Positions 1 to 8,440 of a DNA stretch of 9,228 bases are shown one piece after another (within the stretch, counting starts at the first letter, position 1; each line of letters opens with the position of its first letter). The position numbers were made by a program, and so were the translations under genes. Source of the stretch: a virus (lineage: Duplodnaviria; Heunggongvirae; Uroviricota; Caudoviricetes); the IMG/VR virus record IMGVR_UViG_2526164665_000028; one strand, given 5' to 3'. Under the pieces are notes generated by a model. It searched no databases and was not told the origin of the DNA. It worked only from the letters and a program-made list of their open reading frames with translations.

Positions 1-241
1 AGTGGCCGTAGGCCGGAAAAACTGGATGTTCGCGGGTTCCGACAGCGGTGGTGAACATGCGGCGGTGTTGTACTCGCTGATCGGCACATGCCGTCTGAAC
101 AATGTGGAGCCAGAAAAGTGGCTGCGTTACGTCATTGAACATATCCAGGACTGGCCGGCAAACCGGGTACGCGATCTGTTGCCCTGGAAAGTTGATCTGA
201 GCTCTCAGTAAATATCAATACGGTTCTGACGAGTCGCTTAC
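1..241 (+). mobile_element. IS66-family insertion sequence, right end (partial; continues left of window)
   Basis: Transposase C-terminus in frame 2 followed by a terminal sequence ending ...GAGTCGCTTAC at 231-241, the reverse complement of the GTAAGCG motif typical of IS66-family inverted-repeat termini. Confidence 0.7.
2..211 (+). CDS. IS66-family transposase (TnpC) C-terminal fragment, 5'-truncated by window edge
   Basis: Translation ...RKNWMFAGSDSGGEHAAVLYSLIGTCRLNNVEPEKWLRYV...LLPWKV matches the conserved C-terminal region of IS66 TnpC. Stop TAA at 209-211. Confidence 0.8.
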   Translation: MAVGRKNWMFAGSDSGGEHAAVLYSLIGTCRLNNVEPEKWLRYVIEHIQDWPANRVRDLLPWKVDLSSQ

Positions 242-2181: not shown

Positions 2182-2470
2182 CTGAACAATGACCTTGTTC
2201 TGGCTAGCCAGAGAAAGGTGTCATGTCTGATCTACACGCTTCCTTTAATACATACTATTCACTACTGTTCACTTCAATAAAAATATAGTAAATACATGTG
2301 GTTAAGTGGTGTAGTGTTTTAATTAAAGTGATCATCTACTGTTCATGACTGTTCACAGAGATAAAATTAAACATATATTTCTTTTTCATATAAGTCGCGA
2401 TATTTATTTCAGTTTATTACTGGATCTTTTCTCCTCACCAATATTCACCAGTATTCACCAGTATTCAATA
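2182..2470. repeat. Iteron cluster (TGTTCAC / ATTCACC type), putative satellite ori-like region
   Basis: Repeated TGTTCAC-like motifs at 2182-2187 (rc), 2267-2273, 2340-2346, 2350-2356, plus tandem 10-bp repeats GTATTCACCA at 2441-2460 with degenerate flanking copies (2431-2470), in an ORF-free AT-rich region. Confidence 0.5.
2340..2357. promoter_or_regulatory. TGT-N12-ACA dyad (Ogr/Delta-type activator site candidate, or an iteron pair)
   Basis: TGTtcatgactgttcACA matches the TGT-N12-ACA dyad found upstream of P2/P4 late promoters; it is also made of two iteron-like half-sites, so the assignment is ambiguous. Confidence 0.3.
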
Positions 2471-3012: not shown

Positions 3013-3273
3013 ATGAATAGTATTTCCGTTTCCACCCCGGCACCAGCTGCTCCGGTGCTCCCGGTTCCGGCTCAGCAGGAGCGCTTCATACGATTACCTG
3101 AAGTGATGCACCTTTGCGGGCTATCCCGTTCAACCATCTACGACCTTATCAGCCGCGATGCCTTCCCGCAGCAGATATCCCTGGGTGGAAAAAATGTGGC
3201 CTGGGTACAGTCGGAGGTCAGTGCATGGATGGCGGCGCGAATTGCTGCCCGCGAGCAAGGAGGCCATGCGTGA
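3013..3273 (+). CDS. alpA: AlpA/Vis-family phage transcriptional regulator (excisionase-like HTH)
   Basis: 86 aa; AGAGG 7 nt upstream of ATG. Product ...[49 protein letters not shown]... is the AlpA/Vis helix-turn-helix signature. Confidence 0.85.
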
Positions 3274-3308
3274 AACTTGCTTTGCAGTCTCATCTTCTTT
3301 TTTCTGGC

Positions 3309-3338
3309 TTGCGTCCTGATATCTTTTCCAGGTATAGT
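3309..3338 (+). promoter_or_regulatory. Candidate sigma70 promoter (PLE-like) for the immunity leader
   Basis: TTGCGT (3309-3314), 18-bp spacer, TATAGT (3333-3338), about 30 bp upstream of the first antisense-RNA target site. Confidence 0.3.
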
Positions 3339-3367
3339 TTTCCCGCTGCCGCAAAATCGGCTGCCGG

Positions 3368-3395
3368 GCGTAGGAACCCGAGTTACTTATTGGCG
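3368..3395 (+). promoter_or_regulatory. seqA-like bipartite target for the CI-like antisense RNA
   Basis: Half-sites GTAGGAAC (3370-3377) and CTTATTGG (3386-3393), complementary to TTCCTAC (3545-3551) and CCAATAAG (3529-3536) on the same strand. Confidence 0.5.
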
Positions 3396-3400
3396 ACACC

Positions 3401-3423
3401 AGACGCGCCGTGCGTCTTTTTTT
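3401..3423 (+). terminator. Intrinsic terminator-like hairpin in the immunity leader
   Basis: AGACGC-GCCGT-GCGTCT perfect 6-bp stem followed by TTTTTT. Confidence 0.5.
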
Positions 3424-3487
3424 ACGTCGTTGCTCAGGCACACCCATTTTTCGGGCTGCGGTGCTTATACCTTAGCCCCTTTCAGAT

Positions 3488-3572
3488 AATGGTGGTCCGG
3501 GCGGGGCAGCCTTCGGGCTGGCCGGTTTCCAATAAGGCCGGTATTCCTACCCCCGTTCGGGTCACCACCCAT
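3488..3572 (+). ncRNA. CI / C4-type antisense immunity RNA (boundaries approximate)
   Basis: GGTGGT (3491-3496) pairs with ACCACC (3564-3569) as a terminal stem; internal UUCG-closed hairpin CAGCC-TTCG-GGCTG (3507-3520); exposed region 3526-3552 carries the two blocks complementary to the upstream and downstream targets. The only ORF here (3571-3813, alternative frame) is likely spurious. Confidence 0.5.
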
Positions 3573-3574
3573 GA

Positions 3575-3618
3575 GCGTAGGAACTCCGGTGGTGGCATTT
3601 ACCGCTACTTATTGGAGG
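3575..3618 (+). promoter_or_regulatory. seqC-like second antisense target overlapping the RBS of the next ORF
   Basis: GTAGGAAC (3577-3584) and ACTTATTGG (3607-3615) repeat the seqA-like half-sites; the second abuts and overlaps the GGAGG SD (3614-3618) of the ORF starting at 3627. Confidence 0.5.
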
Positions 3619-3626
3619 TTGCCCTT

Positions 3627-3818
3627 ATGGCTACGATCCTCGCCCCGTCACATCCTCAATTTATATTTGTTTTTGCCGCCGTTCGTCGTGCAGAACGTAA
3701 ACCACGTATCAGTATGCTGCGTATCATCGCCAGCAATGAGCATCATGCACGTCTTTCACTGGTCCATGAGTATGTGCTTTGTCTTGCTGCTCGCCTGCCT
3801 GTCCGGGAGGTGATCTAA
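3627..3818 (+). CDS. Small protein, kil-like by position (first translated gene downstream of the immunity RNA)
   Basis: 63 aa; GGAGG 8 nt upstream of ATG 3627; stop TAA overlaps the next ATG (TAATG). The long overlapping ORF 3114-3818 is an artifact except for this 3' part. Confidence 0.45.
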
Positions 3819-4042: not shown

Positions 4043-4362
4043 AATCACGCACTCTTTCCCTTTCACTTCGGGTAGCGTTGTATCGCCGCGCGGTAGCCTG
4101 CGCCTGGTTGAGTGCCTGCTATCAGCAAAACCGCCATCTGCAGCTCACTCTGGATGAAATTGAAACCGCTATTGCCCGTGAGCTTGAAGGATTTTATCTG
4201 CGACAGCACGGGCAAACAAAAGGCATGGAAATCGCCTGCGCCCTGCTTTCAGACCTGATGGAATACGGCCCTCTAATGTCCTGTCCCGCACTCTCCCAGC
4301 TCGGAATAGCCGTAATGGATGAGTTATGCGTCCGTCACATCAAAAAGCCGGTTTTACACTGA
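4039..4362 (+). CDS. Hypothetical protein of the satellite left operon (immediately upstream of primase)
   Basis: 107 aa; GGAGG at 4027-4031 upstream of ATG 4039; translationally coupled to the preceding ORF. Confidence 0.6.
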
Positions 4363-4376
4363 GGGAGAACTGCGTC

Positions 4377-6710
4377 ATGTCAGGAATGAAAGTCAGTCAG
4401 GCCGTGAAGGCTGCCCGCGGTCACTGGGCTCAGATTCTGCCAGCGCTGGGCGTGAATATATTGAAAAATCGCCATCAGCCTTGCCCGGTCTGTGGCGGTA
4501 AAGATCGTTTTCGCTTCGACGATCAGGAAGGACGCGGAACATGGTTCTGCAATCAGTGCGGAGCCGGGGATGGTTTAGCGCTTGTCACCAGGGCACTGAA
4601 TGTGGATATCAGTGAAGCAGCTGACAGGATACATGGACTGACACATGATCTGTCTGTAGTTAATTCCGAGGTCAGGACGTTAACCGCCGATACCGATAGC
4701 GGGAAAGATGCAGCGGCAGCACTTGCCGCGCGACTGCTGCAAGCCTCGCGTGAATCTGCCGGAAACACTTATCTTACACATAAAGGTTTCCCGGAGCATA
4801 TTTGCCATGAGCTGACTTCAGCTCATAAGGCCGGTGGTATGATGTTCCGCCCCGGTGATTTGATCGTCCCACTCTATAACGCTGACGGGGAGCTGGTGAA
4901 TATTCAGCTCATCAGTGGCAATGGTAGCAAGTGTTTTCTTAAAGGAGGTCAGGTTAAGGAGGCCTATCATCTGATAGAAGGGGGCGGGAGTTCTGTAAGA
5001 AGGATTTGGATTGCGGAAGGTTACGCCACGGCGCTTACCATTCATTATTTGACAGGAGAAGCCGTCATGGTGGCATTTTCGTCGGTCAACTTTCTTTCTC
5101 TGAGCAGCGTTGCCCATAATAAGTATCCGGGATATCAGTTAATTATTGCAGCGGACCGCGATCTGAATGGTTCAGGCCAGAACAGGGCTGAAACTGCTGC
5201 AAAAGCGAGTCAGTGTGACATTGTGCTGCCACCGGTTTTTGGTGACTGGAATGATGCGCTTACCCAATACGGAGAGGAATCCACCCGGAAGGCAATTCTT
5301 GAGGCTTTGAAGCCACATAACGCCAGTCCTTTCGACACAATGAGTGAAGCAGAATTCACAGCGATGAGTGTCAGCGAAAAAGCTCAGAGGGTTCGGGAGC
5401 ATTACAGGGATGCACTGGCGGTTGATCCGAACGGGCAGCTTTTATCCCGCTACGAGTCTGGAGCGTGGAAAGTTATTTCTCAGTCAGATTTTGCCCGAGA
5501 TGTCGCAGCCCTTTTCCAGCGCCTCGGGGCACCGTTTTCCTCAGGAAAAATTGCCTCACTGGTGGAAACATTAAAGTTAATTGTTCCGCAGCAGCAAAAT
5601 CCGTCACGTCATCTGATTGGTTTTCGTAATGGCGTTCTCGATACGCGAACAGGGCTTTTTAGTCCGCACTGTAAAGAGAACTGGCTGCGTACCCTGTGTG
5701 AAGTCGATTTCACGCCACCGGTAAAGGGGGAAACGCTTGAAACTCATGCCCCGGCATTCTGGCGTTGGCTGGACCGGGCCGCCGGACACAAGCCAGCAAA
5801 ACGCGACATTATTCTTGCAGCGTTATTTATGGTGCTGGCGAACCGCTATGACTGGCAGCTCTTTCTGGAAGTGACTGGCCCTGGTGGAAGTGGCAAAAGT
5901 ATTCTGGCTGAAATTGCGACCATGCTTGCTGGAGAGGATAACGCCACCTCTGCGACCATTGAAACGCTGGAGTCCCCGCGAGAACGTGCGGCTCTGATAG
6001 GTTTTTCTCTTATTCGCCTGCCTGATCAGGAGAAGTGGAGCGGCGACGGCGCCGGGCTTAAGGCTATAACTGGTGGCGATGCAGTATCTGTGGACCCCAA
6101 ATATCAGAATGCTTATTCAACACATATTCCGGCGGTTATCTTGGCCGTAAATAATAATCCTATGCGCTTCACTGATCGCAGTGGTGGTGTGTCCCGCAGG
6201 AGAGTTATTCTGCATTTTCCTGAGCAGATAGCACCGGAAGAACGCGATCCGCAGTTGAAAGATAAAATTGCACGAGAACTGGCTGTGATTGTTCGTCAGC
6301 TCATGCAGCGTTTCAGCGATCCGATGAGCGCCAGAACATTGCTTCAGTCGCAGCAGAATTCTGATGAGGCTCTCACCATCAAGCGTGATGCTGATCCAGC
6401 ATTTGATTTTTGTGGCTACCTTGAGGCATTACCTGACACCAACGGTATGTTTATGGGGAACGCCAATATTGTCCCACGCCAGCCACGTACATACCTTTAC
6501 CATGCCTACCTCGTATACATGGAGGCTAATGGCTATAAAAACACCCTGAGTCTTACGATGTTTGGCAAAGGGTTGCCAGTCATGCTGAAGGAGTACGGGC
6601 TACATTATGAGAAACGGCGAACTAATCAGGGAATGCAAACTAACCTCACTTTGAAAGAGGAGAGTAATGCAGACTGGCTGCCCAAGTGTGATGAGCCAAT
6701 ATTAAAATAA
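4377..6710 (+). CDS. P4 alpha-type primase-helicase (zinc-ribbon, TOPRIM primase, SF3/D5-type helicase, C-terminal origin-binding region)
   Basis: ATG 4377 with GGGAG 9 nt upstream, giving 777 aa (the ORF call from 4326 overlaps the previous gene). N-terminal CPVCGGKDRFRFDD...WFCNQCGAGDG zinc-binding motif, TOPRIM-like IAEGYATALT...IIAADRD, Walker A VTGPGGSGKS. Confidence 0.9.
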   Translation: MSGMKVSQAVKAARGHWAQILPALGVNILKNRHQPCPVCGGKDRFRFDDQEGRGTWFCNQCGAGDGLALVTRALNVDISEAADRIHGLTHDLSVVNSEVRTLTADTDSGKDAAAALAARLLQASRESAGNTYLTHKGFPEHICHELTSAHKAGGMMFRPGDLIVPLYNADGELVNIQLISGNGSKCFLKGGQVKEAYHLIEGGGSSVRRIWIAEGYATALTIHYLTGEAVMVAFSSVNFLSLSSVAHNKYPGYQLIIAADRDLNGSGQNRAETAAKASQCDIVLPPVFGDWNDALTQYGEESTRKAILEALKPHNASPFDTMSEAEFTAMSVSEKAQRVREHYRDALAVDPNGQLLSRYESGAWKVISQSDFARDVAALFQRLGAPFSSGKIASLVETLKLIVPQQQNPSRHLIGFRNGVLDTRTGLFSPHCKENWLRTLCEVDFTPPVKGETLETHAPAFWRWLDRAAGHKPAKRDIILAALFMVLANRYDWQLFLEVTGPGGSGKSILAEIATMLAGEDNATSATIETLESPRERAALIGFSLIRLPDQEKWSGDGAGLKAITGGDAVSVDPKYQNAYSTHIPAVILAVNNNPMRFTDRSGGVSRRRVILHFPEQIAPEERDPQLKDKIARELAVIVRQLMQRFSDPMSARTLLQSQQNSDEALTIKRDADPAFDFCGYLEALPDTNGMFMGNANIVPRQPRTYLYHAYLVYMEANGYKNTLSLTMFGKGLPVMLKEYGLHYEKRRTNQGMQTNLTLKEESNADWLPKCDEPILK

Positions 6711-6721
6711 CGATTAACTAA

Positions 6722-6746
6722 CCCGGCTGATGCCGGGCTTCTTATT
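6722..6746 (+). terminator. Intrinsic terminator after the primase gene
   Basis: CCCGGC-TGAT-GCCGGG hairpin followed by CTTCTTATT, 12 bp past the alpha stop. Confidence 0.55.
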
Positions 6747-6771
6747 GGAAACGCACAAATGTAGAGATAGC

Positions 6772-6979
6772 TGTTCACTCTTCACCTCGCTGTTAACACG
6801 TAAACAATTGATATATAAGTTAAAAATGGCAGGGTGAATAGTGTGCATGGTTTTGCGAAAAAAAAGTATTTTTTGTAGAGTCAAGTCCCGGTTTGGATCC
6901 GTTTAACGGAACCTAACTAGATTGACTATTTCTCTGATGATTTTTGGATAAATAATCAACAAAAATCAAAATGTGAACA
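6772..6979. repeat. Second iteron cluster (crr-like), downstream of primase
   Basis: TGTTCACT (6772-6779), TTCACC (6781-6786), TGTTAACA (6791-6798), GGTGAATA (6833-6840, rc TATTCACC), GTGAACA (6973-6979, rc TGTTCAC). Confidence 0.45.
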
Positions 6980-7060
6980 GAGAATGGTGGGGGCACAAAA
7001 AGGGGCATAATTGAATTAATTATAATTAAATTTCAATTTTTACAATAGGTTAAATGTGTG

Positions 7061-7082
7061 TGCGAGTCCGGCCTTCGCACCA
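7061..7082 (+). other. att core: 3'-terminal fragment of a tRNA-Leu (leuX-type) gene, probable attR / right boundary of the satellite
   Basis: TGCGAGTCCGGCCTTCGCACCA matches the T-loop/acceptor 3' end of E. coli tRNA-Leu(CAA) as I recall it (TTCGAGTCCGGCCTTCGGCACCA) with two differences. No 5' half is present, so this is a duplicated integration-site fragment, not a tRNA gene. Confidence 0.55.
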
Positions 7083-7615
7083 AGTTACTAAATTCCTTAC
7101 AATACAGTTAGTTAGACGATTAAATCTGTCTCTTTTGCCTGTAAGAAATGCTCTGTTATGTCCCTTGAAAAAGCCGCTGTGGTTGATAGTGGTAATTGGG
7201 ATGTTAACTCATAGCGGCGTGTCGTTCCAAGCGTCAAACACGTACTGACTCAACTTGAAAGCTATGACGTAGCCACCGTCTCTAAACAATCCCAAAACTT
7301 TTAGTGCAGCGCATTTTAGCCCGATGCCCCCATTCTGTCGCCGTCGCGAGACGCCGCAGGGGATAAACAGGTTTATGGTGGTCACGGTACTTGCAGACCA
7401 TATGCAAGCTCTGCCAGCGGTTCGGCCTCGCTCCCCTTGGGTACATGGTCATCCTGATAAGCCTCACTAACTGACATAACCCTGATGAAGTCGCAAGAGG
7501 CTCCGCTTGTTGTCTTACCACCAACGGGGCTTTATGGATTCTATTGCTTAATATATGATTGTATCAAACTTAGACTGCATAATTTAAACGAACATAACAA
7601 TCAGGCAGGGGAAGA

Positions 7616-8440
7616 ATGATAAAGCCATTTTCTGTGAGGTATGGTCATGTTGACGTTAGAGAGCATGTCCAGCTGAATGATCTTAATTCTGATACACGCA
7701 TGGCATTGTGGAATTGCTTATATCTTTTCCTTTGGACTAACAATCGTCAAACTGCTACAGCAACAAAATGTGCGCAGTCTGTGTGGATATATTATCTAAA
7801 TCAACCTGCGGATAATATTCCTCGTTATGAAAGTGGATACAAAAGTGATAAGACGTTGCTGACTGCTATCCGAGATTATATATATGGGGAAGCATGGTAT
7901 TTGGTATATGATTTAATTGAGTTCATCATTGAGAGAACTAATTCATATATTAATCTATCGAAGCATCTCAATTCCATCTTTAAAAAGCATGGCGTTGGTT
8001 ATACCATAATAAATGGTTGTATTACTCCTATTTCAAATGATAACGAAATTGAAAGTGTTCAGAACGCAGTTGATAATGGCACTGATTCATCGCGTAGCCA
8101 TTTCGAAAGGGCGTTACAACTAATGACGGATAGAGAGCAGCCAGACTACAGAAACTCGATTAAAGAGTCTATCTCTGCAATTGAATCTTTATGCAGGAAA
8201 ATCACGGGCAATGATAAAGGAACCTTGGGGGCTTGTCTTAAAGCTATAGAGGAAAAAGGATATATACACTCTGCAATGAAAGGCGCTTTTAGTCAGCTCT
8301 ATGGTTATACAAGTGATCAGGGTGGAATACGTCATGCGCTAACAGAAGAAGATGTAAATCCTACCTTAGCTGAAGCTAAATTTATGTTAGTCACTTGCAG
8401 TGCGTTCAGTAATTATCTGTTGTCAAAAATAAGTGATTAA
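7616..8440 (+). CDS. Hypothetical protein, tentatively AbiJ-like abortive-infection protein (HEPN/Abi_C-like C-terminal region)
   Basis: 274 aa; GGGGAAG upstream of ATG 7616; stop TAA at 8438-8440. Strongly AT-biased codons. N-terminus MIKPFSVRYGHV...ALWN and C-terminal ...YGYTSDQGGIRHALTEED... recall AbiJ-N/Abi_C proteins, but this is from memory of motif patterns only. Confidence 0.55.
   Translation: MIKPFSVRYGHVDVREHVQLNDLNSDTRMALWNCLYLFLWTNNRQTATATKCAQSVWIYYLNQPADNIPRYESGYKSDKTLLTAIRDYIYGEAWYLVYDLIEFIIERTNSYINLSKHLNSIFKKHGVGYTIINGCITPISNDNEIESVQNAVDNGTDSSRSHFERALQLMTDREQPDYRNSIKESISAIESLCRKITGNDKGTLGACLKAIEEKGYIHSAMKGAFSQLYGYTSDQGGIRHALTEEDVNPTLAEAKFMLVTCSAFSNYLLSKISD

Follow-up and report, generated by a model that had tools for sequence, protein, structure and literature searches.

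The cluster of short repeats directly downstream of the primase-helicase gene of a P4-like satellite in Escherichia coli O26:H11 is this satellite's copy of the known crr element (cis replication region) of phage P4, a correct but ordinary identification. It occupies positions 6752-6877 (plus strand) of the window, by which we mean the whole stretch of 9,228 nt of DNA that was analyzed, and alignments together with nhmmer define it as a single crr unit that is orthologous, in position as well as in sequence, to one 120-bp crr repeat of P4. That a second, crr-like iteron cluster follows the primase had been proposed in an earlier note made from the sequence alone, and in this respect the note was right. 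The interval that it assigned to the cluster, 6772-6979, was right only in part: the crr unit is found at 6752-6877, and the remainder, ~6885-6985, belongs instead to the attachment-site arm of a P4-type integrase. A bipartite P4-type origin had been correctly recognized; the exact limits of crr are now fixed, and the replication module (6752-6877) can be told apart from the integrase att-arm module (6885-7082). Probably the unit acts as crr does in P4, with alpha binding to it, bridging of ori and crr, and a requirement in cis. The view of how P4-like satellites replicate is unchanged.

E. coli O26:H11 str. 11368 carries the DNA of the window in its chromosome as an identical stretch, which is also present in ~100 other Shiga-toxin-type strains. 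Judged by its core genes, primase homology, Rfam RNAs, cos homologue and integration at leuX, it can be identified as a P4-like satellite prophage that occupies the leuX locus in E. coli O26:H11. The order in the chromosome record (NC_013361) is tRNA-Leu, a tyrosine integrase, two cargo genes and an IS66-family element; next come ogr/delta, psu, a sid-like gene and a 0.9-kb AT-rich intergenic region; then an AlpA-type regulator, an Icd/Ash-like gene, a small ORF, DUF5375 and the 777-aa primase-helicase; and at the right end a 0.9-kb non-coding stretch, an AbiJ-NTD4 gene, IS elements and the fec operon. In the RefSeq annotation, with which Pfam agrees for each gene, delta, psu, sid, alpA/vis, ash, cnr (DUF5375) and alpha stand in P4 order. 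The core set of P4-like satellites has been described as int, psu, delta, sid, alpA, ash, along with alpha (PMC13586616), and the O26 element has this set together with the CI RNA and cos, int being located outside the window at the attL end, beside the intact tRNA-Leu. The cos homologue (290-326) matches the P4 cos region. Rfam matches place isrK at 3345-3422 (72 bits) and the C4/CI antisense RNA at 3485-3572 (83 bits), both inside the RefSeq Icd/Ash-like coding sequence at 3270-3818, which is the P4 immunity RNA locus. These two (3345-3572) are the window's only Rfam matches, with no structured RNA detected in 6700-7100, and no tRNA genes were found. The end of the IS66-family element (ISCro1) fills window positions 1-241, ~50 bp from the cos homologue; its insertion splits the int/cargo part from the remainder, and the packaged genome would grow by ~2.7 kb. 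Because of this insertion near cos, this particular prophage may not be mobile. At the opposite end, the AbiJ-NTD4 protein (7616-8440) matches the PADLOC candidate defence family PDC-S32 (E=6e-104), and its gene lies beyond the satellite's attR, within a remnant island (IS600, IS3, fec operon) after leuX.

The alpha gene (4377-6710, plus strand) encodes an intact primase-helicase of 777 aa with a C-terminal origin-binding domain, and the full-length protein shares 73% identity with P4 alpha. Its Pfam domains are Zn_Ribbon_Prim, Toprim_3, D5_N and Pox_D5, and a C-terminal stretch of 100 residues, 671-770, matches the structure of the P4 origin-binding domain, 1KA8 (E=1.7e-48). Alpha is the presumed trans-acting partner of crr. 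The alpha operon ends at an intrinsic terminator (6722-6747, plus strand) made of a stem-loop at 6722-6737 and a T-rich tail; the stem, CCCGGC-TGAT-GCCGGG, is equivalent in position to P4 t-alpha (4604-4628). The attR core is found at 7064-7082, and the cluster does sit between the primase terminator and the att core, where the earlier note had put it.

In the P4 GenBank record (X51522), crr extends over 4291-4590, directly after t-alpha, and consists of two 120-bp direct repeats, each annotated with five "ori type 1" repeats in both orientations, in the variants TGTTCACC, TGTTCACA, TATTCACC and TCTTCACC; crr is followed by the attP arm repeats (GGGGGCA.) and then by the att core. Window positions 6771-7090 are collinear with P4 4391..4060 (reverse strand) through one crr repeat, the arm repeats and the att core. 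The aligned blocks are, in the window and in P4 respectively, CTGTTCACTCTTCACC and TGTTCACCCTTCACC, GGTGAATAGTGTGCATGG and GGTGAACAGTGTGAACAG, and CGAAAAAAAAGTATTTTTT and CGAAAAAAAATTTTTT; beyond them, a palindrome GGTTTGGATCC-N7-GGAACCTAAC corresponds to GGTTTGGATCC-N7-GGATCCAAAC of P4, GTGGGGGCACAAAAAGGGGCATAA corresponds to the two P4 arm repeats, and GAGTCCGGCCTTCG-CACCA to the P4 att core. From the alpha stop codon to the att core the distance is ~190 bp less than in P4, a shortfall equal to one 120-bp unit plus a 60-bp spacer, which indicates that the window has one crr unit. Neither the crr profile nor a repeat search found a second crr unit or a long direct repeat in the window.

The nhmmer profile, constructed from the crr units of ~40 other P4-like elements with the window excluded, has its sole match in the window at 6758-6865 (E=4.3e-14, 53 bits). 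Six iteron positions can be followed through the unit. Site s1 (6758-6767, minus strand) is inverted and eroded, reading AATGTAGAGA where the family has GGTGAACA(A/G)T, and it is not recognizable as an iteron in the weight-matrix scoring. Site s2 (6771-6779, plus) is canonical, CTGTTCACT, with 14.8 bits, the joint best matrix score in the window, and aligns with the annotated P4 type 1 repeat 4384-4391. Overlapping it is s3 (6778-6786, plus; CTCTTCACC, 11.6 bits), whose CTTCACC is kept family-wide. Site s4 (6790-6798, plus; CTGTTAACA) is weak or eroded, the family form being (T)ATTCACC. An AT-rich spacer (6799-6830, GC 0.29-0.36) with conserved TTGAT/ATGAA and AAAAA blocks separates these four sites from s5 (6833-6841, minus), a canonical inverted site, CTATTCACC, of 13.3 bits that aligns with the P4 type 1 repeat 4323-4330. 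Site s6 (6842-6851, minus) is eroded, with TGTGCATGG in place of the family's TGTGAACAG, and, like s1, it is not recognizable as an iteron. The unit is closed by an A8-GTA-T6 tract (6858-6874), corresponding to the high-information family block AAAAAAA(C/G)TTTTTT, a closing tract that is found in every crr unit of the family. Iterons in both orientations therefore surround an AT-rich spacer as in P4, in smaller number: canonical iterons occupy three of the six positions (s2, s3 and s5). At the iteron columns the window is 68% identical to the family consensus, the lowest value of 41 units, the other 40 having a minimum of 77% and a median of 89%.

The likeness to P4 crr comprises the homology to its 120-bp repeat; the place immediately 3' of the alpha terminator, with the Int arm sites and then the att core following; the iteron word, order and orientation, (-)(+)(+)(+)-AT-rich-(-)(-), with the closing A/T tract; a cognate alpha with a 1KA8-type domain; and a partner ori1 homologue that shares these iterons, is part of the same molecule and lies upstream of the alpha operon. 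The differences are that P4 has two direct 120-bp units ~60 bp apart and ten canonical iterons, whereas the window has one 120-bp unit and three canonical iterons; that s1, s4 and s6 of the window hold non-canonical but lineage-conserved sequence; and that an extra, isolated iteron-like site is present 130 bp further on, at 6972-6980.

The partner cluster, the homologue of P4 ori1, is at 2255-2357 (plus strand), where an alignment with P4 and 13 other elements identifies iterons at 2255, 2265 and 2349 (CTATTCACT, CTGTTCACT and CTGTTCACA) with eroded positions, i3-i5, between them. Three strong sites are thus present at the window's ori compared with the usual 5-6. Among 40 elements, those with more strong sites at ori tend to have more at crr as well (Spearman 0.66, p=4e-6, without phylogenetic correction), which is expected if one protein reads both. 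The crr profile also matches ori1 weakly (20-35 bits), on the opposite strand, in many related loci, for example at 6239-6338 in L004, at 6228-6327 in L024 and at 9328-9429 in P4, with the window's ori below threshold. These weak matches point to a shared architecture of ori1 and crr, and as sequences the two may be old duplicates of one another. From the ori iterons (2255-2357) to the crr iterons (6771-6841) the distance is 4.5 kb, compared with 4.7-5.1 kb in P4. The earlier note had seen in this the P4 geometry of two sites some 4.5 kb apart; the distance stands, but a functional constraint on it is not supported, since crr shifts with cargo. The spacing follows from synteny, the alpha operon lying between ori and crr, and a strict 4.5-kb requirement finds no support, relatives having crr anywhere from ~10 nt to 3.1 kb beyond alpha.

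In P4, alpha is reported to bind the type I iterons of ori as well as those of crr, bridging the two, and crr is said to be needed in cis for initiation at ori1; specific binding of alpha to P4 crr in vitro has also been reported. By homology, we infer alpha binding, looping and the cis requirement for the O26 element as well. The C-terminal winged-helix domain of the element's own alpha would bind the iterons of crr and ori, and alpha held at crr and at the ori ~4.5 kb upstream would bridge both into a loop. This loop would be needed in cis for alpha-driven initiation at ori, and such replication would proceed as an episome, after excision.

Two known systems offer a comparison. In plasmid R6K, whose gamma ori works with the alpha and beta origins, distant iteron sites cooperate by initiator-mediated looping. 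The presumed logic is alike in that one initiator bridges repeated words at two loci kilobases apart; the protein family is unrelated, however, the words are different, and the P4-type initiator is the primase-helicase itself. The replication origins of SaPI/PICI satellites are located 3' of the pri-rep gene and in SaPIs this site is the origin itself. There, too, iterons flank an AT-rich stretch directly after the satellite's replication-protein gene, whereas the P4 downstream site is an auxiliary cis element and initiation takes place at ori1, upstream of the operon. No sequence relationship of SaPI/PICI origins to the window was seen.

All five motif copies listed in the earlier note are present at their places, namely TGTTCACT at 6772-6779 (plus), TTCACC at 6781-6786 within TCTTCACC at 6779-6786 (plus), the weak TGTTAACA at 6791-6798 (plus), TATTCACC at 6833-6840 (minus) and TGTTCAC at 6973-6979 (minus). 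As iterons they did not all hold up: TGTTAACA, which is part of s4, was rejected as a good iteron because its 5.5 bits fall below the family 5th percentile of 7.6 bits, and the copy at 6973 lies outside the crr unit. The note's reading would have failed had the motif not been enriched over background, and the count does exceed that of shuffled sequence. Allowing at most one mismatch, TGTTCACC occurs 4 times in 6772-6979, compared with 0.22 expected from dinucleotide-preserving shuffles of that same interval, and 4 was reached in 0/3000 shuffles; as a scan statistic, 4 matches within 208 bp were reached in 1/300 shuffles of the whole window. Exactly 4 copies of the 8-mer CTGTTCAC are present in the 9228 bp (0.27 expected; 0/200 shuffles), at 2265, 2349, 6771 and 6973, that is, two per intergenic cluster and none elsewhere. 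With a weight matrix built from the iterons of other P4-like elements, the five best scores in the window are all within the two intergenic clusters.

To the right of the crr unit is a separate module. An imperfect palindrome, at 6890-6917, is the counterpart of a perfect palindrome at 4243-4270 of P4, and was rejected as a part of crr because it tracks the GGGGCA arm sites and not the crr unit. Among 52 loci examined, 11 of the 12 that have the palindrome also have a pair of GGGGCA arm sites ~100 nt further on, a co-occurrence that assigns this stretch to the P4-type integrase attachment site. The palindrome is invariant at 25 of 29 columns within the lineage of the O26 element; its consensus is GGTT(T/A)GGATCC-N7-GGA(T/A)CC(T/A)AACC. 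P4-like elements whose att ends are of another type lack it, and it may be the binding site of an accessory factor at P4-type att sites. The isolated iteron-like site CTGTTCACA (6972-6980, minus strand, 14.1 bits) is shared only with close E. coli relatives, namely SCU-105 and D1; E. coli 1368KP, Kluyvera L053 and P4 lack it, and none of its 9 columns is invariant in the lineage. As a conserved component of crr the 6973 copy was therefore rejected; it was either gained recently or matches by chance. Two integrase arm-type sites, GTGGGGGCACAA and AAGGGGCATAA (6987-7010, plus strand), match the P4 attP arm repeats at 4151-4174, and copies of the arm-type sites are also found beside int at the attL end. 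The attR core at 7064-7082 (plus strand) is a copy of the leuX tRNA-Leu 3' end and forms the right end of the element; read directly from the sequence and compared with P4 and leuX, it has a one-base deletion relative to GAGTCCGGCCTTCGGCACCA of the P4 core and leuX.

The proximity of the att site raises the question of whether the whole cluster could be part of the attP arm, a set of recombination signals read by integrase or accessory factors and not by the replication protein. The cluster is within 300 bp of the att core, the stretch 6885-6985 does belong to an att-linked module with the palindrome and GGGGCA sites at fixed spacing, and the copy at 6972-6980 abuts the arm sites. The arm-type motif is a different one, however, GGGGGCA(C/T)A, and the motif of crr is the one repeated at ori. 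Moreover, crr units stand beside alpha in elements of other att types that lack the palindrome and arm motif, and they shift with cargo insertions independently of the distance to att, so that this explanation is highly improbable. A still more sceptical view is that short AT-rich words cluster here by chance, or that the stretch is an unannotated minus-strand ORF of 56 aa at 6714-6884. The region is indeed AT-rich, and a 56-codon ORF can be listed mechanically; yet the motif count exceeds that of every composition-matched shuffle, homology to P4 crr is recovered at E=4e-14, and conservation is blockwise at the iterons with indels between them, which is not codon-like. The ORF was rejected as a gene, also for its lack of RefSeq annotation, and the shuffles and the crr homology effectively refute both forms of this view.

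More serious is the proposal that crr and ori are vestigial, having decayed below the threshold for alpha-dependent replication in a domesticated or defective remnant, and have no present function. The facts that count against a functional crr are three of six canonical sites, 68% consensus identity, an eroded ori and an IS66 element beside cos. The lowest iteron-column identity of all units compared, the three strong sites each at crr and ori as against 5-6 typically, a further substitution in s2 of E. coli D1 (CAGTTCACT) and the IS66 insertion would all fit decay. Loss of a single ori1 iteron reportedly inactivated the P4 oriI, which likewise counts against function of an eroded ori and crr. 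According to a recent survey, no core gene of inactive elements occurs as a pseudogene more often than the P4 primase (PMC13586616), which would also fit decay. In the O26 element, however, every core gene is intact, alpha included. The unit keeps its architecture, its spacer length and its A/T tract, and the reduced site set persists in elements of three other genera. Among the closest alpha relatives, Enterobacter L043 (96%) and Scandinavium L066 (82%) keep the same three-site crr; Kluyvera L053 (88%) has a similar two-site form. Among five lineage members the invariant columns are 9/10 at s1 (90%), 10/12 at s6 (83%) and 80% at s2, compared with 5/10 at s4 and 17-41% in the spacers. Greater invariance of s1 and s6 than of the spacers argues, in this small sample, for constraint rather than drift or free decay, and we regard loss of function as quite unlikely.

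A functional crr that acts as in P4 is therefore our preferred reading, and within it the coordinated reduction and replacement of alpha sites at ori and crr is the sole mildly novel angle. This lineage (the O26-type element, L043, L066 and L053) might work its bipartite P4 origin with roughly half as many canonical alpha sites as usual, with s1, s6 and i3-i5 swapped for conserved non-canonical sequence and new iteron-like sites elsewhere. The new sites are a 10-bp tandem array of TATTCACCA at 2431-2470 and the isolated site at 6972-6980. Such a pattern would represent coordinated site turnover at two distant loci, or a shifted or relaxed specificity of alpha, and not decay; we put this forward tentatively, as a rather unlikely proposition. 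The O26 element shows that nature maintains a lone 120-bp unit even when no more than three of its iterons are canonical.

The family background was obtained from 80 loci encoding alpha relatives, one genome per species. In almost all of them the layout after alpha is stereotyped: s1 is inverted, s2 and s3 are overlapping direct sites, s4 is direct, and a ~35-nt AT-rich spacer is followed by overlapping inverted sites s5 and s6 and an A7-8/T5-6 tract. In ~40 elements from many enterobacterial genera the iteron positions are the best-conserved blocks, with 1.63 vs 1.03 bits per column. The crr profile matches 54 of the 62 loci that have a full-length alpha, and crr usually starts 42-51 nt past the alpha stop codon; in the loci without a crr match (8/62), alpha is at most 58% identical to the query. 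In the locus of Enterobacter sp. BIGb0383 (L003), alpha is full-length (77% identical) and an ori1-type cluster is present, but no crr could be detected in the 8 kb downstream; this element may naturally lack crr or may have been rearranged. Of 40 elements scored for unit number, 30 have a single and 10 a double crr unit, so that the duplication characterizes P4 rather than the family. Compared with the crr of Enterobacterales P4-like elements (L004-L066), the window fits in register the commonest layout, a single unit ~45-50 nt past the alpha stop codon; it differs in having 3 strong sites where typical units have 4-6, and in having crr adjacent to alpha where ~12 elements have cargo between the two. 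In two loci of Rosenbergiella nectarea (L037 and L038), s1 and s6 both carry the non-canonical GTGTAGGAT; such a concerted change at sites ~85 nt apart hints that one factor reads both.

The cargo in about a dozen elements is inserted between the alpha terminator and crr and pushes crr 0.7-3.1 kb away. The loci with cargo before crr are L005, L018, L032, L039, L042, L043, L044, L045, L046, L049, L066 and L080, so that the arrangement is also seen in L043 and L066, among the closest alpha relatives. Examples of cargo are a SIR2-like gene in L043 and a weakly matching PD-T7-1-like gene in L004. Two crr units flank ~1.8 kb of cargo in L004, L027 and L054, which suggests that crr units may serve as recombination anchors for cargo exchange. 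A minor "primase-to-att" defence hotspot has been described (PMC13586616), and the position of cargo between alpha and crr refines it. The survey, with its six-site unit, its predominance of single over double units and its cargo insertions, could help to annotate P4-like satellites, and, as a modest practical use, the limits found here mark the cis elements for mini-replicons or delivery phasmids derived from the O26 element.

Some further variation was seen at both ends of the replication module. The array at 2431-2470 consists of the tandem 10-bp units CTCCTCACCA ATATTCACCA GTATTCACCA GTATTCAATA and lies ~75 nt past the ori1-type iterons, at about the place taken in P4 by the unrelated "type 2" repeats (CTTTAAGTGG, three times). 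Its units are similar to the type I variant TATTCACC; the array of E. coli D1 is one unit shorter, and other lineage members have diverged versions. The attR core of the window lacks one G, reading CCTTCGCACCA where the leuX 3' end and the P4 core have CCTTCGGCACCA, and this deletion is common to SCU-105, D1 and Kluyvera. In E. coli 1368KP (L085), at ~6360-6400, the motif CCTTCGCA is expanded into a short tandem array.
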